Below are positions 4,679-28,576 of a DNA stretch of 41,908 bases, in pieces. Under the pieces are notes generated by a model. It was not told the origin of the DNA and searched no databases. It saw nothing but the letters and a program-made list of their open reading frames with translations. Position numbers and translations under genes: made by a program. The first letter of the stretch is position 1, and each line of letters starts with the position of its first letter. Source of the DNA: Caldilineae bacterium (GTDB taxonomy: Bacteria; Chloroflexota; Anaerolineae; DTLA01); assembly GCA_037446815.1 (NCBI GenBank), contig JBBIHX010000007.1:1-41908 (forward strand). The letters are read 5' to 3'.

Positions 4679-5461
4679 CTACGGGATGATCAGCGTCTGC
4701 CCGGCGTAGATGAGGCTGTACAGGGTGAGGCCGTTGGCCTGGGCGAGGGCCTGGACAGTAACGCCGTAGCGCGCTGCGATGCCGTAGAGCGTGTCGCCGG
4801 ACTGGACTACGTGCGTCCTGGTGCCCGTGGGCGCGGATGGCGGCGCGCCGGTAGTGCCGGCGGGCAGGACGAGTCGCTGGCCCGCGCGCAGGGTCGTGGG
4901 GTCAGTGATGCCGTTGAGTTGGGCCAATTCCTGCCACGTGATGCCGTAGCGCAGCGCGATGCGGTACAGGTTCTCGCCTGCCTGCACGATGTGCACGTTG
5001 GGCGGGTTGGTGGCCGTGGCCGGGACCATGAGCGTCTGGCCCGCCAGCAAGAGGGCGTCGGGCGACAGGTTGTTGAGGGCAGCCAGTTCGTTCACCGTGG
5101 TGCCAAAGCGCGCCGCGATGCCGTAGAGCGTGTCGCCGGGCTGGACGGTGTAGGTGGACGATCCGGGTTCCGGCGTTGGTTCGGGTTCCTGCGGCGCGGG
5201 CGTGGCCGTGGGTTCCGTCGGCAGGAATGGCTCCGGCGTGGGCGTTGCCGTGGCTTGCATGGCCGCAGACGTGCTCACGGGCGTTGGGATGGCCGTTGCC
5301 GCGCTGGGAAGGGCGGTTGCGGTAGCCGTCACGGCCTGGGTCGGCGTGCCCTGCGGCGCAGGCGACGGGCTGGGCTTGGGCCTTGTGCAGCCGACGAGCA
5401 TGAGGCTGGCGGCCAGCACACAACCGGCCGCCACGAGGATGGCCCTGGTTCGCGCATTCAT
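4679..5461 (-). CDS. Lipoprotein with Pro/Thr linker and three LysM domains (260 aa)
   Basis: AGGAGG SD precedes ATG 5461. Signal peptide with lipobox LVGC. Three LysM repeats: YTVQPGDTLYGIAARFG, HIVQAGENLYRIALRYG and HVVQSGDTLYGIAARYG. Confidence 0.9.
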   Translation of the reverse strand: MNARTRAILVAAGCVLAASLMLVGCTRPKPSPSPAPQGTPTQAVTATATALPSAATAIPTPVSTSAAMQATATPTPEPFLPTEPTATPAPQEPEPTPEPGSSTYTVQPGDTLYGIAARFGTTVNELAALNNLSPDALLLAGQTLMVPATATNPPNVHIVQAGENLYRIALRYGITWQELAQLNGITDPTTLRAGQRLVLPAGTTGAPPSAPTGTRTHVVQSGDTLYGIAARYGVTVQALAQANGLTLYSLIYAGQTLIIP

Positions 5462-5497
5462 GTTGTGCCTCCTATGAGTAGGTGAGGTGGTTGACCT

Positions 5498-5526
5498 ATT
5501 ATAGCACATGTGGGCGAGTTTGTCTT
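5498..5526 (-). promoter_or_regulatory. Candidate extended -10 sigma70 promoter for the LysM lipoprotein
   Basis: TGcTATAAT (-10 at 5498-5503) and a weak -35 AAGACA (5521-5526) at 17 nt spacing, in the 86-nt intergenic gap. Confidence 0.55.
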
Positions 5527-9246: not shown

Positions 9247-9276
9247 ATGATACTGGGTCTCGGTATGGCCTGTCAA
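9247..9276 (-). promoter_or_regulatory. Internal sigma70 promoter immediately after the ftsZ stop
   Basis: TTGACA (9271-9276), 18 nt, TATCAT (9247-9252). Confidence 0.6.
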
Positions 9277-9277
9277 C

Positions 9278-10501
9278 TCACGTATGCGCAACATCGCTGA
9301 AGCGCGCCGATTGGAGCCGCCGTCTCAGAAATGCGGGCACATCCAGGCTGTTGGGATCCCACCGCGTGGTGTAGGATGGCCATTCCTCGGGCGCGCCGTC
9401 GGCAGGGGCCTGCGCCGATTCCGGCGGAGGGGACGGCGCCTCGGCGGGTTGGGCGCCCTCATCGGCCGGTGTGGTGATTCTGGGTTGGGGCAGGCGGCCC
9501 GACGTTGCGCGGACGGGGATTTCGGCTCCCGCGACCTGGATAACCTGGGGTTCGGCGACGCCAATGCCGGTTGCCACCAGGGTAACCTGCACGCGGCCTT
9601 TCATCGCGGGGTCTATGGTGGTGCCGACCTTGATGTTGGCGTCCGGGCTGGCATGGGAGGCGATGATTTCGGCGGCCTCGCCCACTTCGGCCAGCGAGAG
9701 GTCATCGCCGCCGGTGATGTTGACCAGCACGCCGGTGCACCCCTGGATGGAGTCCAGGCTGACGAGGGGGCACTTGAGCGCCGCATGGACGGCGTCGGCG
9801 ACGCGCTTGGGGCCGCGCCCCTGGCCTATGGACATGAGGGCCTGGCCGCCGATGGTCATGATGGCGCGGACGTCCGCGAAGTCCAGGTTGATGATGCCCG
9901 GCTGGGTTACCAGTTCCGCGATGCCCTGTACCGCCTGGCGCAGCACGTCGTCCGCCACGCGGAAGGCGACGTCCAGGGTCATGTGCTGGGACACGAGTTG
10001 CAGGAGGCGGTCGTTGGGCACGACGATGAGGGTGTCCACGTGCTCGCGCAGGCTTGCGATGCCTCGCTCGGCGGCCCGCTGCCTGCGGGTGCCCTCAAAC
10101 GAGAATGGGCGGGTAACGATGGCGACGGTGAGGGCTTGTGTCTCCCGCGCGATGCGGGCGACGATGGGGGCCGCGCCGGTGCCCGTGCCGCCGCCCATGC
10201 CCGCCGCGATGAAAATCATGTGCGCGCCGGCCAGATGTTGGCGCAGGTCGTTCTGGGATTCCAGCGCGGCTTGGAATCCGATGTCCGGATTGCCGCCCGC
10301 GCCCAGGCCCCGCGTGAGGGTCTTGCCCAGTTGGATGCGCGTGCAGGGTTCGGATGATGCCAGCGATTGGGCGTCGGTGTTGGCGGCGATAAACTCCACG
10401 CCTGGGATGCCAATCTGGATCATGCGGCTGATTGCGTTGACGCCTGCGCCTCCGACGCCGATGACTTTGATGCGAATGGGATAGGTCGGTTTGTCTGCCA
10501 T
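9278..10501 (-). CDS. ftsZ: Cell division protein FtsZ (407 aa)
   Basis: IKVIGVGGAGVNA, NTDAQSL, GLGAGGNPDIG, tubulin signature GMGGGTGTG, T7 loop NLDFAD, a Pro/Glu-rich linker and C-terminal peptide LDVPAFLRRR. GGAGG SD precedes ATG 10501, so the track start at 11329 is over-extended. Confidence 0.97.
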   Translation of the reverse strand: MADKPTYPIRIKVIGVGGAGVNAISRMIQIGIPGVEFIAANTDAQSLASSEPCTRIQLGKTLTRGLGAGGNPDIGFQAALESQNDLRQHLAGAHMIFIAAGMGGGTGTGAAPIVARIARETQALTVAIVTRPFSFEGTRRQRAAERGIASLREHVDTLIVVPNDRLLQLVSQHMTLDVAFRVADDVLRQAVQGIAELVTQPGIINLDFADVRAIMTIGGQALMSIGQGRGPKRVADAVHAALKCPLVSLDSIQGCTGVLVNITGGDDLSLAEVGEAAEIIASHASPDANIKVGTTIDPAMKGRVQVTLVATGIGVAEPQVIQVAGAEIPVRATSGRLPQPRITTPADEGAQPAEAPSPPPESAQAPADGAPEEWPSYTTRWDPNSLDVPAFLRRRLQSARFSDVAHT

Positions 10502-10518
10502 GGCCGCCTCCGTGTGCG

Positions 10519-13056
10519 TTAGGGATTCCAGTTGAGCCAGCGGCTTAGCCATTCTTCCAGGCTTGACCAGTGGAATGGCCCCGAACCTTTGACCTCCAGG
10601 GCCACCGGGCCGAGTAGGTTGTTCTGCTCGTCCGACTCGGCCACAAGGCCGGTGTCGCCTTCGGTATGGTAAGCATCTGCCAGCACGTAGATGCTGTGCA
10701 TACCGCTTGCCAGATTCCCCGCGAAGTTGCCGTACTGCGGGTACGGATCCGCGGAAGACAGGATAACTTCCTCGCCTGGGGCCAGGTCGGGGACGTACCA
10801 CAGGATGCCGACGCCCAGGGCACTGGCGATGGAGTTGACATAAGGTTTGACCCTCGGGTCTATGTACAGTTGCACCCAGAAGCCCGGCGCAGGGCCATCG
10901 CCTTGATTGCGGACGGTTACACGGAGCAGGATGGGTTCGCCCGACTGCGGTTGCGGCGGGAAGACTTCCAGCCCGCTGACGACGATGTCCGGCGCGGTCG
11001 GGGCGGGCGCAGGCGATGGCTCCGGCGTCGGCTCCGGGGTCGGTTTGGGCGGGCACGCCTCGCAGGGGAGCGGGTACGCCGGGCTTTCGGCCAGGTTGCC
11101 GGCGAGGTCGGAGATGCGGAAGCGCACCAGCGTTGCCTCGCCGGGTATGCGGGCGTAGAGGGCGGCCTCTGGGCCTTCGGGCGTTACGATGGCGTCCTGC
11201 CAGACGCTCCACGTGGCCCCGCCGTCGGGCGACCAGGCGGCGAAGGCGCTGGCGGGATCCAGGCCGCTTTCGTCGTCGCGCACGCGCACGGCGATCTCGC
11301 CCATGTTGGATTGCACCGCGTCGGTCCACGCGCCGGGCGGGTTGGGATCGTAGAAGATTTGCGCAACCGATGGCTGGGACGAGAGGCCCGCCTTGTCCGT
11401 TACGCGCACAGAGTACGTGCGCGGGCCCGGGATTTCGGGCAGGGGCAGGGTCAACTCGCGCACGTAGGGCTGCGCGGGCGCGCTGCTTGGGTCATCGCCC
11501 AGGCCTATCTGCATGGCCTCAACGCCGCTGCCCACGTCCAGCGCCTCAACGGTCAGGGTGATGGTGGCCTGCGTGGCATACGGCGCACCGTTGTTGATGA
11601 GGAGCGTGGCCTGGGGTGGCGTGTTGTCCACCAACACCATCAGGGACTGGGCCGCTTCTTCGCCGCGGGCGTTGTGGGCCACGGCCTTGAGCAGGTGATC
11701 GCCGTCTGTGGCCGCCGTGGTGTCCCACTCGTGCTGAAGCGATGTCCCGATCTTGCGCTTGACCGGCTTGCCGTCTATGTAAAGGGTAACGTCCGATGTC
11801 GCCACGCCGCCCTGGACCTCTATCGTCTGAACGCCGGATAGGGCGCGGTCGGCTGTCGGCGATACGAAGCGCACCGACGGCGCCTGCCGATGGATGATTT
11901 CGGCGACTTGCTCGCGGAGCGCGGGGAGGCGGCTCTGCACCTGGTCGCCCGGGCACGTGGTGGACTTGGTTTCGCGGTGCCCGGCGATGTTGGGCAGGTC
12001 CAGGTCGCGGAAGATGCTGCGCCCGGTCGGGTCAATGCCGTAGCGGTCGCACACCCAGGCGACCAGGCGGGCCAGGGCGTTCATCATGGCCTCGGTGGGC
12101 GGCTCGGTCTGGAAGTCGCCGATGAGCGAGATGCCGACAGAACCCTCGTTGAAGCCGTAGTCGTGGCCGCCGACGACGCCTTCGCCCCCCTTGCGCCCCT
12201 CGTAGATGTTGCCGAGGCGGTCAATGAGGTAGTTGTAGCCGATGTCGCCCCAGCCGCGGGTTATGGCGTGGTAGTAGTACACGGCGCGGACGGTGGCGGC
12301 GGGGTCCTGCTTGGGGTCGTTGGGGGTGGCCGTGTGGTGGATGATGATCTTCACGGGCTTCACGTACTTCGGTTCCCATGTCATCAGGGTCTCGTCGGCG
12401 CCCCACCCTCGCCGCGGGATGATGGCAGGACGCTGCACGCCCGGGCCTTCGCCCTGGGGCAGGACCATCTGCATGGCTTCCTGCACGGTGGGGCCGGGCT
12501 GCGTGTCGGCGAAGGTCCAGGTTACGGCGGAGACAACGGGCGTCGCCTGGCCGTCGGCAGACGCGAACAGCAATCGGTACTGGATGAACCGCGCGCTCTG
12601 GGCGTATACCATATGGCCGGGCCAGTCTTCGGCGGCGGAGCGCACATCCTCGTCGGGCAGCAGTTCCTGCCACTCGGTCCACTCCTTGCCGTCGGCGCTG
12701 GTGCGGACGGCGAGGGTCAGGCTGGTGCTGGGGGGAATCTCGGCCTCCCAGCGCCACACTGCCACCGAGAACGGCGCGACGGCCGGGGCGTAGGGCGGAG
12801 ACGTGTACACGCCCGCGCTTTCGTAGCGGCCTTCGGCGTTGCGGGCGAGGGTCAGTTCGCCGTCCCCCTGGCGTTCAATCTGAATGCGCTGCAAGGTGCC
12901 GCGTTTGAAGTCCGACACCGTGGACTGCGTCCATGTGCTCGCGCTCAACGCCTGCGGTTCCGCATTTTGCAGTCCCACCTCTGCGCACCCGGCGATGGAC
13001 AGCACGAGCGCGATGATCCCGAAAAGACACGCGGCACGCAAGGCATGGCGTTTCAT
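10519..13056 (-). CDS. Lipoprotein N-acetylmuramoyl-L-alanine amidase (Amidase_2/PGRP type) with Ig-like and C-terminal CARDB-like domains (845 aa)
   Basis: Lipobox IAGC. Zn ligands and catalytic residues intact: IIHHTA, GDIGYNY, IAGHRE, TCPG. Ig-like LYIDG..WDTT..DGDH.LKAVA and CARDB-like PDIVVSGL..VTVRNQG. The start overlaps the upstream stop (ATGA). Confidence 0.9.
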   Translation of the reverse strand: MKRHALRAACLFGIIALVLSIAGCAEVGLQNAEPQALSASTWTQSTVSDFKRGTLQRIQIERQGDGELTLARNAEGRYESAGVYTSPPYAPAVAPFSVAVWRWEAEIPPSTSLTLAVRTSADGKEWTEWQELLPDEDVRSAAEDWPGHMVYAQSARFIQYRLLFASADGQATPVVSAVTWTFADTQPGPTVQEAMQMVLPQGEGPGVQRPAIIPRRGWGADETLMTWEPKYVKPVKIIIHHTATPNDPKQDPAATVRAVYYYHAITRGWGDIGYNYLIDRLGNIYEGRKGGEGVVGGHDYGFNEGSVGISLIGDFQTEPPTEAMMNALARLVAWVCDRYGIDPTGRSIFRDLDLPNIAGHRETKSTTCPGDQVQSRLPALREQVAEIIHRQAPSVRFVSPTADRALSGVQTIEVQGGVATSDVTLYIDGKPVKRKIGTSLQHEWDTTAATDGDHLLKAVAHNARGEEAAQSLMVLVDNTPPQATLLINNGAPYATQATITLTVEALDVGSGVEAMQIGLGDDPSSAPAQPYVRELTLPLPEIPGPRTYSVRVTDKAGLSSQPSVAQIFYDPNPPGAWTDAVQSNMGEIAVRVRDDESGLDPASAFAAWSPDGGATWSVWQDAIVTPEGPEAALYARIPGEATLVRFRISDLAGNLAESPAYPLPCEACPPKPTPEPTPEPSPAPAPTAPDIVVSGLEVFPPQPQSGEPILLRVTVRNQGDGPAPGFWVQLYIDPRVKPYVNSIASALGVGILWYVPDLAPGEEVILSSADPYPQYGNFAGNLASGMHSIYVLADAYHTEGDTGLVAESDEQNNLLGPVALEVKGSGPFHWSSLEEWLSRWLNWNP

Positions 13057-14444
13057 GGCGTGTCCCCTCCGTGGGGCGAGGGCGCCTCGCTTGCCTCAAA
13101 GTTGAGGAAGCGGCGGCCCTGGCTCGCCAGTTGGTCCAGGATTTTCTGCGTTTCGGCGGCGTCGGCGCCCGCGACTCGCTCCACGCGGCAGCCCGCGGCG
13201 CGAAGCGTCGCCTCGGCGCTGGAAGGCACGCCGGGCGGCTTGCCGATGATGGTTACATACCGGGCGAGGGATGCTTCTTCCACGCTGAAGCCGCACACGG
13301 GCTTGAAGGCCTTGACGTAGTTCGCCAGCATGCGCCAGTACCATTCGGACACGCCCCACTCCCAAACCGGGCACAGGACGTAGTGATAGATGGGATGCTC
13401 TCGCGGGGTTGTGCCTGGATCGGGAGCGGGCTGCGGTTGCGCGTTCTGGCGGGGGTGCTTGGGCAGGTCCTTCATGGCCTGAACCGCCGGCAACCGATGG
13501 CCGCTCTCCTTGTACCAAGCGTGGGCTTCAAATTGGCTCCCGTGGCTGTTGGCGAGAAGCCAGAAGGCGTTGTTGAACAGGTAGTCGGGCACGACGTTGT
13601 CCATGAGCATCTTGGTCATGTCCACGGCGATGCGGGCGTGAGCGGCTTCGTCCACGGGCGGGTACTTGGCGTGGTCATGCGCGCCGACGATGGGCCCGTT
13701 CTCGTAGCAGATGAGGGGCAGCGAACGACCCACACGGGCCCGGATGATGGCATCGTACCACTCAAACAGGTAGAAGCCCACATGGTCCTGGCTGCCTTCG
13801 GGGCAATAATAGGGGCGGGCGTTGGGCCAGCGCGCAGGGCCGCCCTTGCCCCAGTCTAGGGGCTTGTTGGACACGTAGTTGTGAATGGCGACGGCCATGG
13901 TGTCAAACAGGCCTTCCTTGCCCTTGAGCACAAGGTAGTCCAGCGCGGTCTTTAGGAAGACCGTGTCCCAGTAGTTGCCGCCTGGACTCAACGGCGTGAA
14001 TACGGGATACAGGCCCGCGGCCTTCATCGTCTCCAGGCAGGGGATGAGCATGTCCATGAATCGGTCCACCAGCGCAGGCTTGGCCCATTCGGCCCAGTCC
14101 CACTCGTTGGTGAGGTTGGGCTCGTTGTAGACGTGGGCATAGTGCACGCCGAGGGCCTTGTAGGTCTCCAGCAGCGAGCGCAGGGCCTTTTGGTCTATGG
14201 GGCGAACCGTCGGGGTGTACACGCGGATGAGCGGCTCAATGTCGGCTTGCACCAGCGCCTTGATGAAGAACGACGGGATGGGGTCGCTCACGTCCGAGAG
14301 CAGCACCAACCATGATGCGCCCATGGCCTTCAGTTCGGGCAGCCAGAAGTCCAGGTCGGCCTTGCTGTAGTGGAACAAGTTCGGATAGTAGTGGAAGCCG
14401 ATGCCTGTGTCTCCCTTGGGTCGCCAGTATGCTTTGATGTCCAC
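13053..14444 (-). CDS. Putative clan GH-A glycoside hydrolase with both catalytic Glu residues, plus one cell-wall-binding-repeat-2-like C-terminal unit (463 aa)
   Basis: GTG start with AGGAGG SD. VYNEPN (acid/base E108) and ICYENG (nucleophile candidate E248). C-terminal YVTIIGKPPGVPSSAEATLRAAGCRVERVAGADAAET resembles CWB2 repeats. No signal peptide; the family is uncertain. Confidence 0.7.
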   Translation of the reverse strand: MDIKAYWRPKGDTGIGFHYYPNLFHYSKADLDFWLPELKAMGASWLVLLSDVSDPIPSFFIKALVQADIEPLIRVYTPTVRPIDQKALRSLLETYKALGVHYAHVYNEPNLTNEWDWAEWAKPALVDRFMDMLIPCLETMKAAGLYPVFTPLSPGGNYWDTVFLKTALDYLVLKGKEGLFDTMAVAIHNYVSNKPLDWGKGGPARWPNARPYYCPEGSQDHVGFYLFEWYDAIIRARVGRSLPLICYENGPIVGAHDHAKYPPVDEAAHARIAVDMTKMLMDNVVPDYLFNNAFWLLANSHGSQFEAHAWYKESGHRLPAVQAMKDLPKHPRQNAQPQPAPDPGTTPREHPIYHYVLCPVWEWGVSEWYWRMLANYVKAFKPVCGFSVEEASLARYVTIIGKPPGVPSSAEATLRAAGCRVERVAGADAAETQKILDQLASQGRRFLNFEASEAPSPHGGDTP

Positions 14445-14456: not shown

Positions 14457-16961
14457 CTATTTGGAAACGGCCATCTTCAGGATGGTGCCTTTGTGGTCTA
14501 CCGTGATTTTCGCGATGAAGGGGCCGCGCAGCCCGTCGCCTTCGGGCGCTCCGCTGACGGTGAAGACGTATCGGTTCGCGACGGGGGCGGCCGTATGGGC
14601 AACCGCGCCCGAATGGCAACTGCCGGTGCATTGGCCGTTGCACAACACCTGCTGGCTTACGCGCACCTGCTTGGGCGCGAGCCACGGCAGGCGATGGCTG
14701 ATTTGCGACTGCACCTGCTGCATCAGGTCGCCGGGCACATCCGTGGCCGCCTGGTGCGCGCTGTGCTGACAGCACACGGCCAGCGATTTGCGCACTGTCG
14801 CCGATTGGGGCAGTTTGTCCCAGATGGGTTTCTGCCCTTCTATGGCGAGGGTGGGATCGCCGAACAGGTTGAAGGTGAGGAGGGTCTTCTGGTCTTCGCT
14901 GTCCAGGTAGCCCTGGCGGTTCATCAGGTCGTTGGCGAACGAGAGTTTGGCCCATTGGAGGGCCTGGCCGATGGGCAGTCCGCCTGTAACGGCGAGCCAG
15001 AAGAGCCGGCCGAGCAGGTCTGCACCGGCGAGCGGCGGCGTGAGCGAGCCGTAGGCCAGGCGCGTGGATCCCACGACGGCGCGCGCGCCCTCGTGCAAGA
15101 AGCGCAGCGCGATGGAGTCGTTGTGCGTGCGCCCGAGGATGTCCGCGCCGTAGCAGGCCTCGGTGAGGACGGTGGCCCCTGCTGCCCACGCTTCTGCGAT
15201 GTCGTCGGGCATCAGCGCGACGGGGAACAGCGGAAAGTCGGCGGCGAAATCGGGGTCGCGCTGGCCGTACCAGGACGGTTCGCCCTCCACGCCGTGCAGG
15301 TTGAAGTAGGCCAGGCGTGGCTTGCTCTGTGTGAGGACCGAGAACTCCTCGCGCGAGATGGGGGGCGACATGCGCAGGTGGCGCGCCTGCCCGATGACCT
15401 CAAACACGGCGCGCGACGCCTCTTTCCACACGCTGGCGGTGTATCCAAAACTGCCATCGGCAGGCGGGGTCTCGGCATCCCGCTTCCAAATGCGGGCGAT
15501 GGCTTTGAGGCCCTTGGCCGTCGCGGCGCGCTGCGATTCCTCGTGGGCCTTCGCGGCGTGGGCGATGAGGCGCAGGAACGCGTCGGCATCGTCGCAGTCG
15601 GGCAGGCGGCCGACGGCGCGCGTGGGGAGCAGCGACGAGCCGTTGCGCGCGGCATAGGGCGCGTCGGTGTAGATGTCTTCGTCCTGGTCGTCGGTCGGGT
15701 TGGGCACGCGGCAGCAGGGCACGATGTCGTCGCCGCCCAGGATGAGCACGTGGCGCAGGTCCTGGCCCTGCATGGTGAGGCCGTCGGCGAGGGAATCCAC
15801 GGCGGCCTTGACCTGCGCCGCGTCGCCAGGGTCTTCTACAGCCGTTCCGCCCAGCCCTGCCATCTGCTGGGGATCGTCCAGCGCCACGAAGTGGATGGCG
15901 CGGTTGTCGCCCGGCCCGATGGCCTGGACGAGGCGCTGTACAGCCTCGCCGAGGCGCTGGACGAACTCCGCGCCGAATTTGGCTTCCAGCGGGCCTTTGC
16001 ACGTGAGGATGGCGAGGGCCGATACGGCGGATGGTCGTTCTGGCGCGTCCTGTCCCGCAGCGCCCATCAGGTGGTCGGTGAGCCGCACCATCTCCACCTG
16101 GATGTCCTGCAGGGTGGGGCTGTCGGGTGCGGCTGGCGCATCGGCGATGGCGTCGGCGGACCGTCGGCCTTTGGCGGCGTGCCGCGATGAGCCGGCGGGG
16201 GCCGCGTCGGGCGGGTCAGACGGAGCGGCCCACAGGTGGCGGTAGTGGCCCTCCCCGCCGAAGGTGCGCTCGGCCACGATTCCGCTGGGGTCCAGGGCCT
16301 GGGCGGCGTGGAGCGAGGCCATGCCCGCCTCGGTCTGCCCTTGGCGCATCAGGATGTCGCCTCGGATAAGGGCGGCCTTGACGAAGTTGGGCCACGCGGC
16401 GGCAATCTGCTCCAACGCGGACATGGCTTCCTCCAGCCGCTCCAAGCGCCACAGCGTCTCAGCAAGGCCTAGCCACGCTTCGGGAAGGAATGGGTCGGAG
16501 CGGGTGATGGCCTGGTACTCGGGCAACGCGCCGCCCCAGTTGACCGACAGTTTCAGGCGCGTGGCCCTGCCGAGGGGAGAAGCCTCGCCGGTGGATTTCA
16601 GGTTCAGAAGGGATGGGAGCCGATCGCCCAGGACTAGACTCTGGTCGGCGGCGGACGGGCAAAGGGCGAAGGCGCGCACAAACTGGCGCGCGGATTGCTC
16701 GGACTCTCCGATGGCGCGCAACGCCTCGGCAAGGGCCAGGCGACATTCGGCGTTCTCGGGGTCCAGGCCCAGGGCCGTGTCCAGCAGGAGGCGCGCCTGT
16801 TGAGGCTCGCCGAGGCGCAGCCATGCGACGGCTCCGAGGAACAGTCCGCGCAGGTGCCCTGGGTACTGGCGCACGAGCGCCTCGGTTTGCTCTAGCGCCT
16901 CGCGCGCTTGGTTTTGTCTGATGTAGGATTCGGCCGCGTTGCAGATGTCTTTGCCTTTCAC
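14457..16961 (-). CDS. N-terminal TPR plus peptidase C25 (gingipain-like, caspase/hemoglobinase fold) protein (834 aa)
   Basis: TPR repeats in the first ~240 aa. C25-type motifs VLILGGDDIVP, TDAPYA, AVGRLP, YFNLHG (His556), TEACYG (Cys603) and FNLFGDP. GTG start at 16961 with GGGAG SD; an alternative ATG at 17015 is possible. No signal peptide. Confidence 0.8.
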   Translation of the reverse strand: MKGKDICNAAESYIRQNQAREALEQTEALVRQYPGHLRGLFLGAVAWLRLGEPQQARLLLDTALGLDPENAECRLALAEALRAIGESEQSARQFVRAFALCPSAADQSLVLGDRLPSLLNLKSTGEASPLGRATRLKLSVNWGGALPEYQAITRSDPFLPEAWLGLAETLWRLERLEEAMSALEQIAAAWPNFVKAALIRGDILMRQGQTEAGMASLHAAQALDPSGIVAERTFGGEGHYRHLWAAPSDPPDAAPAGSSRHAAKGRRSADAIADAPAAPDSPTLQDIQVEMVRLTDHLMGAAGQDAPERPSAVSALAILTCKGPLEAKFGAEFVQRLGEAVQRLVQAIGPGDNRAIHFVALDDPQQMAGLGGTAVEDPGDAAQVKAAVDSLADGLTMQGQDLRHVLILGGDDIVPCCRVPNPTDDQDEDIYTDAPYAARNGSSLLPTRAVGRLPDCDDADAFLRLIAHAAKAHEESQRAATAKGLKAIARIWKRDAETPPADGSFGYTASVWKEASRAVFEVIGQARHLRMSPPISREEFSVLTQSKPRLAYFNLHGVEGEPSWYGQRDPDFAADFPLFPVALMPDDIAEAWAAGATVLTEACYGADILGRTHNDSIALRFLHEGARAVVGSTRLAYGSLTPPLAGADLLGRLFWLAVTGGLPIGQALQWAKLSFANDLMNRQGYLDSEDQKTLLTFNLFGDPTLAIEGQKPIWDKLPQSATVRKSLAVCCQHSAHQAATDVPGDLMQQVQSQISHRLPWLAPKQVRVSQQVLCNGQCTGSCHSGAVAHTAAPVANRYVFTVSGAPEGDGLRGPFIAKITVDHKGTILKMAVSK

Positions 16962-17037
16962 GTCTCTACTCCCGTATCCGAACAGGGTAGGGTCATCTCG
17001 GCGGGCGCGGTGCATCCACCAGTCCGCCCACGTGGGC

Positions 17038-20000
17038 CTAGGCGGCGCTGGGTTCTTTGCTGATGAAGCCCAGGGCGCTCACCGTGGCCAGTTGCTTGTA
17101 CGCTTCGGCGTTGCCCGGCTCCAGGCGGACGGCATGGCGGAACATCTCGGCCGCCTTGCCGTACTCCTTTGTGCGCTTGTACAGGAGGCCAGATTTGACA
17201 TAATATTCGGCGTTCTGGGCGTTGATTTGGATGGCGCGCTGGTAGGCGCGCTGCGCCTCCTCAATGCGATCCTGCTGCTCGTAGGCTGTCCCCAGCAGAT
17301 ACTGGGCTTCGGCGTCGGAGGGCAGGAGGTCCACCAGTTTCTGGAAGTGGGCGGTGGCCTTCTCCTTGTATCCCAATTGGGCGCAGAGCAGGCCCAGGCG
17401 ACGATGGGCTTCGGCATGCTTCGGGTTCAGGACGATGGCCTGTTGGTACGCCTGCAGGGCCTCGTCGGCGCGCTCCTGCTCGCGGAAGATGTCGCCCAGC
17501 GCCACGTAGGGTTCGGCCTCTCCCGGCGCGAGATTGATGGCCGCTTCCAGGCACTGCGTGGCCTCGTGGTATTGGCCGAGGTTCTTGAAGGCCAGGCCCA
17601 CGTGGAGGCAGTGGCGCGCGTTTTTGGGTTCCAGCGAGAGGGCGCGGCGGAAGTGGCCGAGGGCTTCGTTCCACCGGCCCGCGGCGGCGTAGAGATTGCC
17701 CAGTGCCTCGTGGGCAGGGGCGTAGTCGCCCTTTCGGGTGATTGCCTCTTTGAGCACGTTGATGGCGTCTTCGGGCTTTCCGTCGTCCTGCAGCACCGCT
17801 GCCAGGCTGAGGTAATACGCAGGCTCGTCAGGAGCGGCCTCAATGGCCTTTTGCAAGGCGGCGCGCGCCTGTTTAGGTTGCTTCGCCTTGAGGTACATTT
17901 CCCCGAGCGCTGCCAGGTCGGCGGCTTTCGGTTCCAGCGCCACGGCTTTTTCCAGCAGGGCGGCGGCGGCCGAGTGGCGGCCCATTCCGGCGTAGGCCTT
18001 GGCGGCCAGGCGGTAGTAGTCGGTCGCGCCAGGCTGGAGTTTGATGGCCTTGAGCAGGCATTCCAGGGCGGATTGGTACTGCGCTTCGGCGATGAGCATC
18101 TCAGCGAGTTCTGCCTGCCAGGGGGCCACGTCGGCGGCCAGGCTCAAGGCGGCCTGTAGGGCCTCGCGTGCTTCTGCGGGGCGACCGGCGGCGCGTAGCG
18201 CCCGGCTCAGCGCATGGTGATAGATTGCCTCTTGGGGCCGCTCTTGGGCCGCCCGCGAGAGGTGGGCAGCGGCCTCGTGCGGGTCGCTCTGCTCAAGAAG
18301 GGCCATCCCCAGATGGTAGTGCAATTCGTCTGTGCCCAGGCCCATGCTTTCGGCCGCACGCAGTTCCTGGTAGGCTTGCGCGGGCTGGCCCAAGCGACGC
18401 TTGAGGATGCCGAGCGCCAGGCGGATGGGCGCGTGAGTGGGCGACAGCGCCGCTGCCCGCTGGAGCAGGGACAGAGCCTCGTCGGTCTGGCCGGTTTCCG
18501 CCAGCAGCAGTCCAAGTTCGGCGCTCGCGTCGGGGTTGGCGAGCTGGGCCTCGGCCAGTTCGGTCAGGGCGCTCATGCTCTCGGATAGGGCCTCTCCGTC
18601 CACGTGCCGCGGCTTGAGCCCCAGGGCCTGCTCGTGGCGTGCCTGGGCAAGATCGCGGCGGACGCGACCTGCCAGGGCAAGGATGTAGCGCGGCTCCGAC
18701 GGGGCGAGTTTGTACGCGCGTTTGAGCGCTGCTGCGGCGTCGCCGTCGTTGCCGATGGCCTCATGGGCCAGGCCCAACAGGTAGTGGGCCTCTGGCTGGG
18801 CGGCGTCCAAGCGGGTGGCCTGCTCCAGGATGGGCAGGGCTTGGGCGGCCCGATGGGCGCGGAGCATCGCGCGTCCCAGGGCCAGGGCGTAGGCCTGGCT
18901 GGCCGGGGCCAGTTCGGCGGCCCGTTGCCATTCGGCGATGGCCTGCTCCAGGTTGCCGGCCGCTTCGTGCAACTCGGCCATCTCGGCGTGAGATGCGGCG
19001 TCGTCGGGCGCGGCCTGGAGCACATGGGCGAGCGCCTGGATGGCGTCGGAGGTTCGCCCCTGCTTGCGGAGGGCGGCAGCGAGGCCGCGCTGAACCTCGG
19101 TGTTTTCGGGTTCCAGCGTGGCCGCGTTCTGGTACGCTTTCAGGGCCTCGTCCATGCGGCCCTGGCTCTCGTAGATTTGACCCAGGAGCGCGTAGTGGCT
19201 GGCGATGGTGCCGTCTCGGTCAATGGCGGTGCGGAGGCTCTTCTCGGCATCCAGGGCGCGGCCCATTTGCCACTGCACGCGGGCCAACATGCCCCAGTTG
19301 ACCGAGTCGCCCGGGTCCAGGCGGAGTGCGTGCTCCAGTTCCTCCAGGGCCTCCTCAAGCCGCCCTTGCTCGGCCAGGATGGAGCCTGCGGCGCGGTGCG
19401 CGAGGCTGCTGGCAACATCGCCGTCGCGTGCGGCTTCTTTCAGGAGGCGCAGGGCCTGTTCGGCCTTGCCCAGTTTGTGGAGCGAGAGGCCGATGCGCTG
19501 GAGCGCCTGAGCGTCGTCGCCGCAGACCTCGGCGGCGCGGGTGTAGGCGCGTTCGGCTTCCTGGGCCAGGTTCTGGGCGGCGTACAGGTCGCCCAGGTCG
19601 CACAGGATGGACGGGTCGCCGGGTTCCAGCGTGGCCGCGCGACGCAACATCTCGTAGGCTTCGCCGACCTGCCCGTTCTGCGCCAGGAGCGCTCCCAGGC
19701 GGCTGTGGTAGTGGGCGTTGTCGGGCGCGATCTCCAGGGCGCGCCGGTACTGCTTGATGGCCTCGCCCAGCCAGCCCTTGTGCCCGAAGGCCTCGCCTAG
19801 TTGCGCGTGGAGCGCGGGATCGTCGGGCATGAGGCTGATAGCGGATTCCAGCACAGCGATGGCCTCGTCGGGTTCGGCGACCTGGCTCTGGGAAATGGCC
19901 AGCGAGCGGCGGTATTCGTGGCGTTCGGGGGCCAACTCCACCGCTCTGCGGAGCGATGCGATGGCGGCATCCATCTGCCCCTGCTCCTGGTACAGGATGC

Positions 20001-23000
20001 CCATCTCGTGGTGCGCCTGGGCCAGGGAGGGGTCTGCGGACAGGGCTGCCGACAGCGCCCGCCGGGCCTCATCCCGCATTCCCAGGACACGGCACAGTCG
20101 GCCGTAGAGGGTCTGCGCCTGCGCCCAGTTGGGGCGGAGTTCCACGGCGCGCTTGCAATGGCCGAGAGCGAGTTTCTCCTGGCCTTCCTGCCCGAGGATG
20201 TCCGCCATCTCCAGGAGGGCTTCCGGGCAGTTGGGCGAGAGTTCTAGCGCGCGCTGGAACGCGGACTTGGCCGCTTTGGTATCGCCGGCCTGGCGCAGGA
20301 CTCGGCCCATGGCCGCGTGGTAGCGGGCTTGCATGGAATCCAGCGCGGCGGCCTGCCCGAATTCGCGCAGGGCGTCGGCCCAGTTGCGGTCCAACTCGTG
20401 CAGGACGCCCATTTCGTAGTGCACCGATGCTTGGTCGGGCGCCATCTGGAGGGCCTGCGTGAGCGTGGACTTCGCGCCTTCCAGGTCGCCAGCCTGTTTC
20501 TGCATGTCGGCCAGGCGGATGCGGTACGGCAGCGCCGAAGGGGCCAGGGCGACTGCTTTCTGGAGCGCATCCACCGCCTTGGGGATATCGTTGCCCAGGG
20601 CGTGGATTTCGGCCAGTTGGGCGTGCAGTTCCGGCTGGCTGGGGGCCAGTTTGAGCGCGGCGAGGGCTTCTTCCCGCGCCTCGTTCAGGCGGCCCAGTTT
20701 GGCGGCGGCCGACGCGATGCGCTGGCGGTAGAGCCACTCGGCGGGGGCGAGGGCGCTGGCCTGCCGATAGTGGCCGAGGGCGCGCTCCACGTCGCCCATG
20801 TCGGCGTACACCTCGCCGATTTGGAACTGGGCGCGGGGGTCGCCGGGCGCGGTAGCCACAGCCTGCGAGAGCAGGGTCGCGGCGCGGGCGCTCTCGCCGA
20901 GCCGGTGCAGGACAGAGCCGAGCCGAAGCGTTGGCTCAATGGATTTTGGCAGGAGTTGCGCGGCCTTCTCATAGACGCCGCGGGCCTGGGCCAAGTGGTC
21001 GTTCTTCTCCAGAAGGATGCCCAATTGCAGATAGGCGGCCCCGGCCTCGGGGTTCATGTCCAGGGCCTTGTCCAGGGTGGCCTGAGCCTCGTCAAAGAGG
21101 CCGAGCGCCGTCTCCACGCGGGCTACATCCACCAGCGCGTCGGCGTCGGTGGGCGCGAGGCGGGCCGCGGTGCGATAGGCTTCTAGCGCGGCCTCCAGGT
21201 TGCCCTTGTCCTCATGGATGGCGCCGGCGGCTCGGTGCGCCTCGGCGACGTTGGGGTTCTCGCGCAAGATGGCCTGTATCTCGTTCATGGCATCATCCGA
21301 CTGCCCCAACTTCTGGAATAAACGGGCCGTGGCAAGACGGTAGCGAGGCTCACTTGGGTCAATGACCGACGCCTGGCGGTATGCGTTGATGGCCTGGGCC
21401 AGTTCGCCTTGTTTCTCCAGCAGGTCGCCGAGTTCGGACATCCACTGGGCCTGACCCGGGCGGGATTCCAACGCGCGGCGGTACAGCTCAACGGCCAGGC
21501 CGCGGCGGCCCAGATGGCCTTCGGCCTGGGCCAGGTGTCGCAGATACTCAGCGTCGCCGGACGAGAGTTCTACGGCATCTTGGAAGCGGGCGCGGGCGCC
21601 TTGCCAGTCGCCTGCATCGGCGAGGAGCGCGCCGAGTTCGTCGTACCACTCAGCGCGGTCGGGCTGGAGCGCGATGGCCTGTTGCATGCGGGCGATGGCC
21701 TCATCCCGCATGCCCTGCTCGGCCAAAACGAGCGCGGCCAGGCGCAGGTAGTGCCCATCGCCCGGGGCCAGTTGGATGGCCTGCCGGTAGGCCGCGAGCG
21801 CCTCTCCGAGCCAGCCGCGCTGTTGGTAGGCGCGGCCCAGTTCGGCGAGGATGGCGGGGTTGTTGGGTAGCAGGGAGCCCGCCCGCTGCAGGCGCTCAAT
21901 GGCCTCGCCGGGCCTCCCCAGGCGATTGAGGGCAACGCCTGCCCAATAGTGGTGTTCAGGGGCGTTGGGCTGGCGGGCGAGGGCCAGGCGGAATTGCGAC
22001 AGGGCTTCCTCGCCGCGGCCCTCGGCCAGGTGGATGAGCCCTTGCTCGGCGCAGATGACGGCATACAGCGCCGATGCTTCATCCTGCGCGCGTTGCAATT
22101 CGGACTGGGCGCGGTCGGGCTCGTTCATGAGTCGGAGGAGCGTGCCGCGCTCCAGGTGGCGGGCGAGGCGCCCGACGTCAAGGGAGCGTTCGGGGTGGTG
22201 GAGGTCGGCGATGGCGTCCGTCGCGCGATCTTCGTCCGAGACAGCAGGCTCTTGCGGCATCAACGCCTGGAGCAGATAAGCGCCGGCCTCGGGTTCGCCT
22301 GCGTTCATCAGCGCCGCGCCGAGGCTGCGAAGGGTCTCGGCGGGGATGCCCGCGTCCTTGAGGCTGCGCACGACCTTGCCCAGCCGATCGGGTGGCAGGC
22401 TCTGCCGGAAGGCACGGGCAGCTAGGGGAGCAAGGGATGGGCTGCCCGCCTGGAGCAGCCGGGCGATGGCGCGTTCCGGCTCGGGGTGCAGCGAAACGTA
22501 CATCTCCCAGAGGGCGGGGTTGTCGCGCGCCAGGGCCACTTCCTGCGACTCGCTGAGATGGTCGCGCAGGGCGAGGGCGGCCAGATACCGCTGCAACGCC
22601 CGATGCGGGAATCGCACGCCGGAGTCGGGCGCGTCCACCAGGAGGCCCATCTGTTTGGCCGAAGCCAGCGCCCCGGTCTTTTGGCCCGTGGCGTGGCGCA
22701 ACAGGATCTCGTTGGCCTGATGCGCGCTGATGGCGTCGTGCCCCTGGCGCTCCATGTGCTCTGCCAGGGCCGCCAGCCCCATGGCGCGCAGTGCTTGCTC
22801 GGGCGAAGGGGAGGCATTGCCCTTGTCGGCGAGGATGCGGGCCAGCGCCGCGAGGACGATCTGGGCAAGGTTCCACCACGGGACCTGGGTCAAGGTCTCC
22901 AGGAGTTCCAGCACAATGGACAGGAACAGGGGCAGGTGAACCATGTCCCAGAGGACGCTGTCTCGCCGCAAGATGCGGTTGACCCGCCGCCGCTGCTCGC

Positions 23001-23667
23001 CGGTGAGCCTGGACGAGAGGATGGCGGTGATGTCATCATCGGACAGCGGGCCCAGACGGACGGCGGGGATGTCGGGCAGTCCCCAGGCGGCCCCAGGCCA
23101 GGCTTCGGGCCGGGCTGCGAACACGGCTTTGACCCTGGCGTTGGCTTGGGTCGCGGCGTCGCATATCTCGCGAACCCATTTGGGGCAGGGCGCCGCGCCT
23201 ATGCGATCCGCTTGGTCTACCAGGAATAGCAGCGATGCGCCGTCTAGCCACCGGCGGGTTGCATCGTCAGCAGTGCTGACGCCATATTTCTCCAGCGCCT
23301 GGGAGACGATGCCTTCGGGCGAGGCGTCGGAAGGGCACGCCTCTGCGTCCACAAGGATGGGAACGGGGAGCGTTGTGCCCTCATCCGGCGCGGCGAGGAG
23401 AACGCGGTTGGCCGTTTCGTGGGCCAGGTAGGCCAGGAGCGTGCTCTTGCCGGCGAGCGGCTCGCCGAGAACGAGGGTGAGCGGCCACATCGCGATGAGA
23501 CTTGCGATGTCTTCGGCGCGACCCTGGGCGGCGGCTCGGATCGCCGAGGTGGGCTGCAAATAGGATTGCCAGGCATGGAGCAACCGCTCGTCGCGCAGCA
23601 GGGCCTGCAGGTAGTCGGTGGCAGGTCCGCCGGCGGGAGCGCCCTTGGAGGAATGTTTGGCAGCCAC
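17038..23667 (-). CDS. STAND/NACHT NTPase with a very long TPR array (2209 aa)
   Basis: Walker A LVLGEPLAGKST, Walker B LLFLVDQADR, sensor AARP, HD1 HLPLFL and winged-helix FPHRALQRYLAA. About 1600 aa of contiguous 34-aa TPR units follow (roughly 40-45 by length). GTG start with AGGGGG SD. Confidence 0.88.
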   Translation of the reverse strand: MAAKHSSKGAPAGGPATDYLQALLRDERLLHAWQSYLQPTSAIRAAAQGRAEDIASLIAMWPLTLVLGEPLAGKSTLLAYLAHETANRVLLAAPDEGTTLPVPILVDAEACPSDASPEGIVSQALEKYGVSTADDATRRWLDGASLLFLVDQADRIGAAPCPKWVREICDAATQANARVKAVFAARPEAWPGAAWGLPDIPAVRLGPLSDDDITAILSSRLTGEQRRRVNRILRRDSVLWDMVHLPLFLSIVLELLETLTQVPWWNLAQIVLAALARILADKGNASPSPEQALRAMGLAALAEHMERQGHDAISAHQANEILLRHATGQKTGALASAKQMGLLVDAPDSGVRFPHRALQRYLAALALRDHLSESQEVALARDNPALWEMYVSLHPEPERAIARLLQAGSPSLAPLAARAFRQSLPPDRLGKVVRSLKDAGIPAETLRSLGAALMNAGEPEAGAYLLQALMPQEPAVSDEDRATDAIADLHHPERSLDVGRLARHLERGTLLRLMNEPDRAQSELQRAQDEASALYAVICAEQGLIHLAEGRGEEALSQFRLALARQPNAPEHHYWAGVALNRLGRPGEAIERLQRAGSLLPNNPAILAELGRAYQQRGWLGEALAAYRQAIQLAPGDGHYLRLAALVLAEQGMRDEAIARMQQAIALQPDRAEWYDELGALLADAGDWQGARARFQDAVELSSGDAEYLRHLAQAEGHLGRRGLAVELYRRALESRPGQAQWMSELGDLLEKQGELAQAINAYRQASVIDPSEPRYRLATARLFQKLGQSDDAMNEIQAILRENPNVAEAHRAAGAIHEDKGNLEAALEAYRTAARLAPTDADALVDVARVETALGLFDEAQATLDKALDMNPEAGAAYLQLGILLEKNDHLAQARGVYEKAAQLLPKSIEPTLRLGSVLHRLGESARAATLLSQAVATAPGDPRAQFQIGEVYADMGDVERALGHYRQASALAPAEWLYRQRIASAAAKLGRLNEAREEALAALKLAPSQPELHAQLAEIHALGNDIPKAVDALQKAVALAPSALPYRIRLADMQKQAGDLEGAKSTLTQALQMAPDQASVHYEMGVLHELDRNWADALREFGQAAALDSMQARYHAAMGRVLRQAGDTKAAKSAFQRALELSPNCPEALLEMADILGQEGQEKLALGHCKRAVELRPNWAQAQTLYGRLCRVLGMRDEARRALSAALSADPSLAQAHHEMGILYQEQGQMDAAIASLRRAVELAPERHEYRRSLAISQSQVAEPDEAIAVLESAISLMPDDPALHAQLGEAFGHKGWLGEAIKQYRRALEIAPDNAHYHSRLGALLAQNGQVGEAYEMLRRAATLEPGDPSILCDLGDLYAAQNLAQEAERAYTRAAEVCGDDAQALQRIGLSLHKLGKAEQALRLLKEAARDGDVASSLAHRAAGSILAEQGRLEEALEELEHALRLDPGDSVNWGMLARVQWQMGRALDAEKSLRTAIDRDGTIASHYALLGQIYESQGRMDEALKAYQNAATLEPENTEVQRGLAAALRKQGRTSDAIQALAHVLQAAPDDAASHAEMAELHEAAGNLEQAIAEWQRAAELAPASQAYALALGRAMLRAHRAAQALPILEQATRLDAAQPEAHYLLGLAHEAIGNDGDAAAALKRAYKLAPSEPRYILALAGRVRRDLAQARHEQALGLKPRHVDGEALSESMSALTELAEAQLANPDASAELGLLLAETGQTDEALSLLQRAAALSPTHAPIRLALGILKRRLGQPAQAYQELRAAESMGLGTDELHYHLGMALLEQSDPHEAAAHLSRAAQERPQEAIYHHALSRALRAAGRPAEAREALQAALSLAADVAPWQAELAEMLIAEAQYQSALECLLKAIKLQPGATDYYRLAAKAYAGMGRHSAAAALLEKAVALEPKAADLAALGEMYLKAKQPKQARAALQKAIEAAPDEPAYYLSLAAVLQDDGKPEDAINVLKEAITRKGDYAPAHEALGNLYAAAGRWNEALGHFRRALSLEPKNARHCLHVGLAFKNLGQYHEATQCLEAAINLAPGEAEPYVALGDIFREQERADEALQAYQQAIVLNPKHAEAHRRLGLLCAQLGYKEKATAHFQKLVDLLPSDAEAQYLLGTAYEQQDRIEEAQRAYQRAIQINAQNAEYYVKSGLLYKRTKEYGKAAEMFRHAVRLEPGNAEAYKQLATVSALGFISKEPSAA

Positions 23668-23679: not shown

Positions 23680-23991
23680 CTAGATTTTGGAGATCATCCA
23701 GAACGCGACAAGACAGATGACGATGCCGCCGCAGCAGAGGAATACGCCGATGCCGACCGCGGTCCGAATGAGTTGGCTCACGGCTTCCACCAGGCGGGCG
23801 GCCGAGTCAATGATGGGCGCGATGCCGTCTTCCAGAGCGGCCCGGGTTCCGATTTTCGCCGACTGGGCCGACAGGGTGCGCATGGTCTGCTGATAGTCGC
23901 GGGCCAAGATGGTCCAGAGGCCGGCGGCGCATGCGGCGACGCCGATGACAAAGAGGGTGATCGCCATTCCGAGTTGCAAGTTGGTGATCAT
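23680..23991 (-). CDS. Small two-transmembrane-helix protein of unknown function (103 aa)
   Basis: MITNLQLGMAITLFVIGVAACAAGLWTILA (TM1), an amphipathic helical middle, then AVGIGVFLCCGGIVICLVAFWMISKI (TM2). AAGGGG SD; 12 nt from the NACHT start. Confidence 0.8.
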   Translation of the reverse strand: MITNLQLGMAITLFVIGVAACAAGLWTILARDYQQTMRTLSAQSAKIGTRAALEDGIAPIIDSAARLVEAVSQLIRTAVGIGVFLCCGGIVICLVAFWMISKI

Positions 23992-24086: not shown

Positions 24087-24102
24087 TGCAAGTTCTATGC
24101 CA
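24087..24102 (-). promoter_or_regulatory. Sigma54 (-24/-12) promoter
   Basis: Minus strand TGGCATAGAACTTGCA, with GG and GC separated by exactly 10 nt, matching TGGCAC-N5-TTGCW at all but one position. It sits directly downstream of rpoN and its activator. Predicted TSS about 24076. Confidence 0.85.
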
Positions 24103-24119: not shown

Positions 24120-24160
24120 AAAACCTGACGGGCCATCCGGGGTGGGGGATGGCCCGTCAG
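24120..24160 (-). terminator. Intrinsic terminator of the deoR-rpoN-HK-RR operon
   Basis: Perfect 14-bp inverted repeat CTGACGGGCCATCC (24125-24138) / GGATGGCCCGTCAG (24147-24160) with an 8-nt loop, followed on the minus strand by GTTTTCT. Lies 52 nt after the regulator stop. Confidence 0.75.
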
Positions 24161-25598: not shown

Positions 25599-25620
25599 TC
25601 TGCTCCCCTCACAGTAGAAT

Positions 25621-28551: not shown

Positions 28552-28576
28552 GTCTCGTGAACCCTCCTGGACGCGC

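Follow-up and report, generated by a model that had tools for sequence, protein, structure and literature searches.

Bacterial proteins built on NACHT and other STAND NTPases are now read almost automatically as anti-phage systems, and defence genes of the NACHT/Avs type tend toward variable genomic contexts. In the proteins that they encode, arrays resembling tetratricopeptide repeats (TPRs) act as sensors, and in the bNACHT01 clade the C-terminal region is diversifying rapidly (bioRxiv 10.1101/2022.07.19.500537). In the animal NOD-like receptor (NLR) NOD2, the last Glu of the LLTFDGFDEF motif (E383) bridges R334 and the winged-helix domain (WHD) in the closed state, and the E383K and E383G proteins are constitutively active, possibly through an inability to hydrolyse ATP (PMC4906405). 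Here we describe a protein of 2209 aa, referred to below as the giant, that joins a predicted NACHT-type NTPase to a long TPR array and is encoded on the minus strand (17038..23667) of a 41,908-nucleotide stretch of DNA from a Caldilineae bacterium (Chloroflexota; Anaerolineae; GenBank assembly GCA_037446815.1, contig JBBIHX010000007.1, positions 1 to 41,908; hereafter the window). The clade to which the giant belongs behaves otherwise than an anti-phage reading would have it: its locus is fixed, its would-be 'sensor' evolves slowly, and its members have neither a fused effector nor the acidic Glu of the Walker B motif.

Overall the giant begins with about 60 helical residues, which are followed by an NTPase module of NACHT fold (aa 61-470) and then by the TPRs (aa 536-2186), and its gene lies between those of a small membrane protein and a C25-type peptidase, in a cluster that runs on to ftsZ. 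Our confidence is high as to what the giant is, and moderate to low as to what it does. For its function we lean, on balance, towards a scaffold or switch that binds nucleotide, hydrolyses it poorly and serves the adjacent protease, in the context of division or the cell wall.

The giant gene and its NTPase module

The giant gene starts at a GTG codon (23667) that has a Shine-Dalgarno-like GAGGGGGTGA ahead of it and lies 12 nt past the stop codon of the upstream small open reading frame (ORF), and the orthologue in locus L001 starts at the identical residue. A scan of genome contigs gave only one close orthologue of the giant; the orthologue in an Anaerolineae-assigned metagenome-assembled genome (MAG; contig JARYMK010000033.1) is exactly 2209 aa long and 81.5% identical, with one gap position per sequence. 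Because an orthologue of the same length exists in another MAG, and the ratio of nonsynonymous to synonymous substitution rates (dN/dS; NG86, window giant versus the 2209-aa orthologue) is 0.16 over the whole protein, the ORF is not a product of chance.

By Pfam the N-terminal module is equivocal. The NACHT profile (PF05729) aligns over profile positions 4-162 of 167 and scores 21.3-21.6 bits, under its gathering cut-off of 26.7, where it ties with the generic AAA_22, and a phmmer comparison of the N-terminal 528 aa with the PDB sequences returned nothing meaningful. The giant also lacks the NACHT-specific signature, D[GAS]hDE after hhhh (Koonin and Aravind 2000, as quoted in a passage of bioRxiv 10.1101/2022.07.19.500537). 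Its relatives are more telling. Pfam NACHT is matched by all ten of the aligned clade members (E <=0.01, best 7e-14), and an exhaustive phmmer search through 1.84 billion representative proteins (E <=1e-3) found 285 relatives of the module; among the best 150 of these, the remote ones (P0008 onward) nearly all carry G[ED]PG[AS]GKT and LLLDGLDEV. Additional support comes through structure prediction. An AlphaFold2 model of aa 1-470 (predicted local distance difference test, pLDDT, 87.6; predicted template modelling score, pTM, 0.86) had as its top 50 Foldseek matches in the PDB exclusively animal NLR NACHT modules (NOD2, NLRP3, NLRP9, NLRC4 and NAIP5; NOD2, as 5irm, at E 2e-9). In superpositions it gave template modelling scores of 0.45-0.52 with open or ligand-bound NLRs versus 0.32-0.41 with closed ADP forms, which, for a nucleotide-free model, is a weak hint only. 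Because of the homology to canonical NACHTs and the NLR fold matches, we take aa 61-470 (22258..23487, minus strand), laid out as nucleotide-binding domain (NBD), helical domain 1 (HD1), WHD and helical domain 2 (HD2), to be a divergent NACHT-type STAND NTPase, similar to what an earlier note on this DNA had proposed from its letters.

Only 67 residues precede the Walker A motif. In the AlphaFold model the helices of the N-terminal 60 aa (23488..23667; residues 15-25, 27-35, 40-46 and 54-60) pack onto the NTPase domain, and this stretch carries a motif, YLxxLRDDPxLA, that is common to the clade. We take it as a short helical cap that belongs to the NACHT module and not as a separate or effector domain; its dN/dS is 0.33. 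When compared with the neighbouring peptidase, the N-terminus of the giant showed no similarity and no shared adaptor or effector-associated domain. Clade relatives likewise have only short N-termini, roughly 40-110 aa ahead of the P-loop, and a fused effector domain was found neither in the giant nor in any clade relative examined; the remote canonical NACHT matches in the phmmer listing have 100-500 extra N-terminal residues.

The Walker A motif of the giant, GEPLAGKS (aa 68-75, 23443..23466, minus strand), fits GxxxxGK[ST] and is followed by T76; its fourth position is Leu, so that the usual Gly of GxPGxGK is absent. The clade alignment shows no variation at G73 or K74, and the Lys is present in all 20 members. 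The Walker B motif reads LFLVDQADR (aa 147-155, more fully LLFLVDQADR; 23203..23229, minus strand), in which D151 and D154 are kept while Q152 stands in place of a small residue and R155 in place of Glu. As a canonical comparison set we used the columns of the phmmer alignment for 144 non-clade relatives. In these, column 151 is Asp in 143 sequences and column 152 Gly in 138; column 154 is Asp in 125 and Asn in 17 (Asn or Ser in 18), and column 155 is Glu in 138. By these counts, of the two acidic residues downstream, it is the Glu (R155 in the giant) that is under the tighter constraint. As a clade set we assembled 20 NBD-retaining members from the protein matches, their contigs and a metagenome scan. 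At the +4 position, equivalent to R155, not one has Glu or Asp: Arg is found in 13, Gln in two and Lys in one, and the remaining four carry a small or hydrophobic residue. The +1 position is Asn, Gln or His in 19/20 and the +3 position Asp or Glu in 17/20, with the Walker B Asp (D151) invariant, so that the clade as a whole reads D-[NQ]-h-D-[RK] in place of D[GAS]hDE. Some members show further decay (DNLNA, DHVES, or Gln at sensor-1). The sensor-1 Arg of the giant, R186 (23110..23112, minus strand), is invariant in the clade alignment and is found in 19/20 members and in 136 of the 144 remote relatives. The position of the ADP-contacting WHD His, H355 in the giant (VRFPHRAL), is His in 14/20 of the clade and otherwise Gly, Asp, Glu or Gln.

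These results bear out much of what the earlier note had put forward: a genuine ORF at 17038-23667 with D151-R155 at 23203-23217, a protein with only some 60 residues and no effector domain ahead of its NTPase, and the replacement of the acidic residue of Walker B. That note had also said what would have spoken against it, namely an N-terminal domain other than a STAND NTPase, or orthologues with a canonical DE and fused effectors. What we find is a STAND NTPase, by homology and predicted fold, in a clade that has neither.

By alignment, position R155 of the giant corresponds to NOD2 E383, and the clade offers a natural parallel to E383K, a NOD2 change that causes disease. Position 107 (aa 101-109, ~23341-23367, at the end of strand beta-2) is also distinctive of the clade, with Asp or Glu where canonical relatives have Asn or Ser. 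A D107-R155 salt bridge could be a charge-reversed form of the NOD2 R334-E383 lock.

The giant keeps the residues for Mg-nucleotide binding (K74, D151 and R186), and the motifs suggest that members of the clade bind Mg-nucleotide and hydrolyse it poorly. A competing account would make the giant a normally cycling NACHT ATPase, a ligand-activated STAND in which D154, at +3, is the catalytic base and the exchange of Glu for Arg a neutral idiosyncrasy of the clade. The nucleotide-binding residues are indeed intact, and an acidic +3 residue is present in 17/20 members. However, it is the +3 position that tolerates Asn or Ser among canonical relatives (18/144), while the +4 Glu is kept in 138/144; moreover, the small +1 residue of the clade has been replaced as well, by Asn, Gln or His, and the constitutive activity of NOD2 proteins substituted at the Glu has been attributed to lost hydrolysis. 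We consider a normally cycling enzyme very unlikely.

The repeat array and the loss of the NTPase

The TPR array occupies aa 536-2186 (17110..22062, minus strand). From TPR profiles and the repeat register it measures 1651 aa, or 46-49 units of 34 aa each; among the many TPR families that recognise it, TPR_2 does so at E 2e-164. It has a super-period of 68 aa (self-identity 25.7% at a shift of 68), with an irregular stretch at about aa 1588-1711. Between the two 2209-aa orthologues the array has no indels, and in this one pair it is under more constraint than the NACHT module (dN/dS 0.07-0.19 versus 0.19-0.23). The giant of locus L002, which comes to ~2215 aa once an apparent frameshift is read through, is 27% identical to that of the window in its NACHT module and ~33% identical, almost without gaps, in its array, and for 21 of the 49 TPR units the best match is the positional counterpart (about 1 expected by chance). 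We take this to mean that the array is old and its units individualised. The idea of a recently expanded or hypervariable array is ruled out by the positional counterparts at 33% identity combined with the low dN/dS.

The earlier note put the array at about 1600 aa. It also held it to be exceptionally long, which the relatives contradict, since giants of the family are anywhere between about 1600 and 3190 aa in length and their TPR units number from about 35 to at least 70. Its proposal that the array serves as a ruler fits only the near clade, where the lengths are 2209, 2209 and ~2215 aa; a strict molecular ruler at the family level is ruled out by the spread of ~1600-3190 aa. The longest giant, in locus L011 (400-9972), has 3190 aa, at least 70 TPR units and a Walker B motif of DNLDR. 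Two giant genes in the sample are interrupted, one by the frameshift in L002 (~4560-4665), where it is called as 1294 + 917 aa, and one by an in-frame TGA in L004 (4717-4719), which leaves 723 + at least 1270 aa; each is seen in a single contig, and they could be assembly errors or real pseudogenisation.

Past the last TPR the giant ends in a conserved tail, AEAYKQLATVSALGF... (17041..17109, minus strand), which also ends the giants of L002, L007, L009, L010 and L011. Its consensus, A-x-A-Y-K-Q-L/W-A-x-x-S-A-x-x-F, is hydrophobic to amphipathic and occurs in giants with or without a NACHT module. A docking peptide or a membrane-binding helix are possible roles for it.

Protein libraries seem to be without full-length giants. 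The seven close matches of the exhaustive search were all truncated or split genes, and word-indexed protein searches gave one fragment for the N-terminus of the window giant and, for that of L007, one match, which was not the 1942-aa protein of L007 itself; the 2209-aa window protein was likewise missing from the results. The apparent rarity of the family is therefore an artefact of this under-representation, and we sampled it through the genomic context of the peptidase instead of by giant protein searches. A peptidase-seeded metagenome scan gave 80 loci, 29 of which had enough upstream DNA together with an upstream giant ORF. In all 29 a homologue of the small protein and a giant TPR ORF stand ahead of the peptidase, and an ORF with a tubulin signature follows in 21; two further loci, L074 and L083, have long upstream DNA, yet no giant ORF. 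Elsewhere, in every relative with a long enough contig, the trio is in place: the small transmembrane (TM) protein is directly upstream of the giant in L002-L004 and L006-L011, the C25-like peptidase directly downstream in L001, L002, L007-L011 and a JGI locus, and FtsZ follows the trio in L002, L007, L009, L010 and the JGI locus. The trio of small protein, giant and peptidase is thus found in more than 35 loci with enough DNA, usually preceded by genes for sigma-54, a kinase and a regulator and followed by MraZ and/or FtsZ.

The genomes with the trio have diverged deeply. Between the window and the distant loci L007 and L010, identities are 48-57% for FtsZ, 47-55% for the small TM protein, 38-43% for the C25 domain, 32-34% for the TPR array and 27% for the NACHT module; sigma-54, for which only L007 was compared, is 41% identical. 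The trio is vertically inherited across Anaerolineae.

Within this conserved setting the NTPase has been lost, and by more than one route. In L009 and a large group comprising L041-L080 the giant has no P-loop NBD, with recognisable remnants of HD1, WHD and HD2, and in L017, L027, L029 and L031-L033 it starts at the pre-TPR linker and has only 46-48 TPR units in ~1750 aa; both groups retain the small protein, the peptidase and ftsZ. Because the NBD or the whole NACHT module was lost and the rest was kept, the conserved core is formed by the small TM protein, the peptidase and a giant reduced to its TPRs, and the NACHT domain is an accessory, in which the catalytic Glu was lost first and the domain was then deleted in at least two lineages. 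The full NACHT, the deleted NBD and the deleted module form a natural deletion series within one operon, through which one could ask directly what a NACHT domain adds to a TPR scaffold. The earlier note had suggested a scaffold role, or nucleotide binding with little hydrolysis. The lineages that deleted the NBD or the whole module and kept the array and operon lend independent support to that suggestion.

The same losses are also an argument for regarding the giant as a static scaffold with a vestigial NTPase, which would organise division or cell-wall proteins at the membrane and whose link to the peptidase would be structural or incidental. In favour of this are the disappearance of the NBD or the entire module from two lineages in which array, small protein and peptidase persist, the tighter constraint on the TPRs than on the NACHT module, and a Glu that was lost clade-wide with further decay in some members. 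Where the module is retained, however, it does not look vestigial: no member has lost the Walker A Lys (20/20) or the invariant Walker B Asp, and only one lacks the sensor-1 Arg (19/20); a dN/dS of 0.19 for the NBD indicates purifying selection and no neutrality, and the preference for Arg or Lys at the former Glu (14/20) suggests a selected role over drift. A wholly static scaffold is in our view unlikely.

Partners, promoter and candidate function

Downstream of the giant, a protein of 852 aa (14457..17015, minus strand) combines TPRs with a Peptidase_C25 domain, which Pfam recognises at 38.9-40.9 bits against a cut-off of 23. Its catalytic dyad is intact: the His of YFNLHG (His574, 15294-15296) and the Cys of TEACYG (Cys621, 15153-15155) are each kept in at least 90% of 51 homologues. 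Its predicted structure (pLDDT 86.9, pTM 0.90) recovered by Foldseek, in this order, gingipain R (8.5e-11), Kgp (to 3e-10), Csx29/TPR-CHAT, separase and procaspase-7, and on these fold matches we assign it to the caspase-fold cysteine peptidases of clan CD. The TPRs are N-terminal and a Cys-rich beta domain is C-terminal, and the N-terminus (MHRARRDDPTLFGYG...) has by eye no hydrophobic leader; the protein looks cytoplasmic. There are more than 1000 homologues, and those with a named source all come from Anaerolineae, Chloroflexi or Dehalococcoidia MAGs. The peptidase is our candidate for the output of the giant in trans.

Upstream of the giant, the small ORF (23680..23991, minus strand; ATG at 23991 behind a Shine-Dalgarno-like GAAAGGGG) encodes 103 aa, for which two TM helices are predicted along with a helical loop of basic character, and matches no Pfam or PADLOC family. 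From the 12-nt gap the two genes are probably translationally coupled.

All genes from 29983 down to 9278 lie on the minus strand. Upstream of the cluster are genes for sigma-54 (28577-29983), a PAS/GAF/SBP histidine kinase (25621-28587) and an NtrC-type sigma-54 activator (24213-25643), and the same regulatory genes are upstream in L001, L003, L007, L009 and L010. A putative sigma-54 (-24/-12) promoter, TGGCATAGAACTTGC (24088..24102, minus strand; consensus TGGCAC-N5-TTGC), is located 97 nt 5' of the ATG of the small ORF and is the single match to the consensus in the window, with 0.19 expected by chance. The same element precedes the small ORF, or a receiver gene ahead of it, in 7/9 loci; the 29 metagenome loci include 18 with a strict match and 3 more with a relaxed one, usually 52-112 nt ahead of the small ORF. 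Between the stop codon of the NtrC-type regulator and the promoter we also observed a perfect 14-bp GC-rich inverted repeat (24125-24160, minus strand; CTGACGGGCCATCC N8 GGATGGCCCGTCAG, followed by GTTTTCT). This hairpin, which is absent from the terminator-scan listing, looks like an intrinsic terminator that would insulate the operon, or it could be an activator-binding site.

From the small ORF to ftsZ the successive gaps are 12, 22, 12, -4 and 17 nt, and the terminator scan found one weak minus-strand site inside the cluster, its overall count being that expected from shuffled sequence. A search for RNA evidence of co-transcription turned up no RNA runs with the window sequence; the DNA runs that contain it come from hot-spring, sediment, subsurface and aquatic metagenomes. 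Behind the peptidase an ORF of 463 aa (13053..14444, minus strand) is negative with Pfam, NCBIfam and PADLOC. It carries YNEPNLTNEW, the NEPN of which is reminiscent of the acid/base Glu of clan GH-A glycosidases. In L001 and L009 the place behind the peptidase is taken by counterparts of 463 and 458 aa, which L002 and L007 lack, and in L010 an unannotated ORF of 406 aa occupies the slot, a correspondence of position only. Next come an Amidase_2 protein (10519..13056, minus strand; N-acetylmuramoyl-L-alanine amidase by its domain matches, with Big_7 and CARDB) and, 17 nt past its stop codon, ftsZ (9278..10501, minus strand; 407 aa from an ATG at 10501, MADKPTYP..., MADKPTYPIRIKVIGVGGAG); a mechanically called ftsZ ORF of 683 aa (9278-11329) was rejected as an over-extension across the 3' end of the amidase gene. 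LysM and SpoIID genes are found past ftsZ, and M23 genes are also co-located. Between the ftsZ stop and the LysM gene is a sigma-70-like sequence (9247-9276, minus strand; TTGACA-18-TATCAT, 11/12 matches), a likely sign that the sigma-54 transcription unit ends here. The flanks of the cluster are housekeeping genes (recG, degV, fakA and rlmN). Within positions 1-5500 of the window, three long plus-strand ORFs (271-2694, 2749-4287 and 4661-5485) are without a Pfam match, and each shares its stretch with long ORFs of the minus strand.

Taken together, the trio and its setting are consistent with the following model. The neighbouring kinase and regulator would switch on the sigma-54 promoter, and the 2-TM protein would anchor the giant to the membrane via its basic cytoplasmic loop. 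The NACHT module may bind nucleotide with little turnover and so give a long-lived assembled state, serving as a scaffold and not as a timer or cycling ATPase. The TPR superhelix would be the conserved working part, recruiting the C25 peptidase or gating it and perhaps doing likewise with further clients, with the peptidase as the output of the giant in trans. The co-location of the amidase, the glycosidase-like protein, ftsZ and the LysM, SpoIID and M23 genes suggests that its targets would be found in division, septal wall remodelling or filament maintenance, and not in phage defence.

A further competitor is an anti-phage or abortive-infection STAND of the bNACHT/Avs kind, in which the TPRs would sense a phage protein, the NACHT module would oligomerise, and the peptidase or the TM protein would kill the cell. 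NACHT plus TPR is in fact the commonest architecture among bacterial defence STANDs, defence effectors are known among both caspase-fold proteases and small TM proteins (Foldseek recovers Csx29/TPR-CHAT for the peptidase), and such systems are enriched in multicellular bacteria (PMC7159879). However, PADLOC gave nothing beyond generic TPR hits and some partial matches that were weak, of which PD-Lambda-4_A (E 2e-4, 18 bits) was the best, and the NCBIfam match to EruA is partial, at 24 bits against a cut-off of 1000. Moreover, the genes keep one syntenic slot, from the sigma-54 two-component system to ftsZ, across genomes in which FtsZ is 48-57% identical, and such vertical inheritance beside ftsZ speaks against an immune NLR of the typical kind. 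The 'sensor' is free of indels and evolves more slowly than the NTPase, unlike the diversifying C-terminus of bNACHT01, and a fused effector is absent, with the NBD dispensable in sister lineages. A defence role is thus decidedly unlikely.

Several points also weigh against the hydrolysis-poor scaffold or switch that we favour. D154, which is kept in most members, could be a catalytic base, so that some hydrolysis may persist. The proposed coupling of the giant to the peptidase and the small protein derives from gene neighbourhood, sigma-54 control is deduced from a consensus match, which 8 of the 29 metagenome loci do not have, and the adjacency to ftsZ could be an inherited gene order of no functional meaning. 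In addition, the NBD-less lineages mean that nucleotide binding is inessential, a point that counts against the 'switch' part of the model.

Should the giant really work together with FtsZ and the cell-wall hydrolases, it would be a new division or differentiation factor of Chloroflexota. Whatever its targets, the locus pairs an NLR-like protein with a caspase-fold protease apparently outside immunity, in multicellular bacteria. A broader proposal, possible though doubtful, is that the Anaerolineae hold a vertically inherited, sigma-54-controlled module of an NLR and a caspase-like protease, anchored by the 2-TM protein and encoded beside ftsZ, that governs a decision of housekeeping or development, such as septation, filament breakage or the programmed death of single cells, and whose NACHT domain is changing from an ATP-cycling switch to a hydrolysis-dead scaffold and, in some lineages, vanishing. 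Were that so, it would be a bacterial, non-immune counterpart of apoptosome or inflammasome logic in multicellular filaments.

Comparison with known systems

Literature searches on Anaerolineae and Chloroflexi brought up no account of this operon, and each of the systems that it resembles shares only some of its features. Gingipains are secreted virulence proteases of Porphyromonas that carry a signal peptide and a C-terminal domain for the type IX secretion system. RgpB and Kgp are the best fold matches of the 852-aa peptidase, which matches C25 above threshold and keeps the His-Cys dyad; it differs from them in having, by eye, no obvious signal peptide, and in its TPRs and Cys-rich C-terminal beta domain. 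MalT and the AfsR/SARP-type proteins couple a STAND NTPase to a helical-repeat sensor in housekeeping or developmental signalling, and are thus a precedent outside defence. They belong, however, to other STAND clades and have DNA-binding outputs, whereas the giant is NACHT-type, has no DNA-binding domain and carries a far longer array. In Craspase (Cas7-11/gRAMP with Csx29) a TPR-fused protease of caspase fold stands beside a very large partner that is proposed as its controller, similar to what we suggest here; the present locus differs in that CRISPR components are absent, the partner is a NACHT-TPR protein, and the peptidase is nearer to the gingipains (C25) than to CHAT.

The bNACHT (Kibby et al.) and Avs proteins have a homologous NACHT module, and the remote phmmer matches of the giant are proteins of this kind. 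However, they usually combine an N-terminal effector with a canonical DGLDE, whereas the giant is effector-less, reads DQADR, is held in synteny and matches no defence model. The best structural matches are the animal NLRs (NOD2, NLRC4/NAIP and NLRP3, with Apaf-1/caspase-9 by analogy). With these the giant has in common the NBD-HD1-WHD-HD2 fold, a C-terminal repeat array and, as we propose, a caspase-fold protease as its likely output, and in its proposed way of working it is most like such an NLR or apoptosome-type platform. It differs from them in having no CARD, PYD or adaptor, in bearing TPRs instead of leucine-rich repeats and far more of them, and in departing from D[GAS]hDE; its candidate protease is gingipain-like and encoded in the same operon, which is apparently controlled by sigma-54 and stands beside ftsZ.

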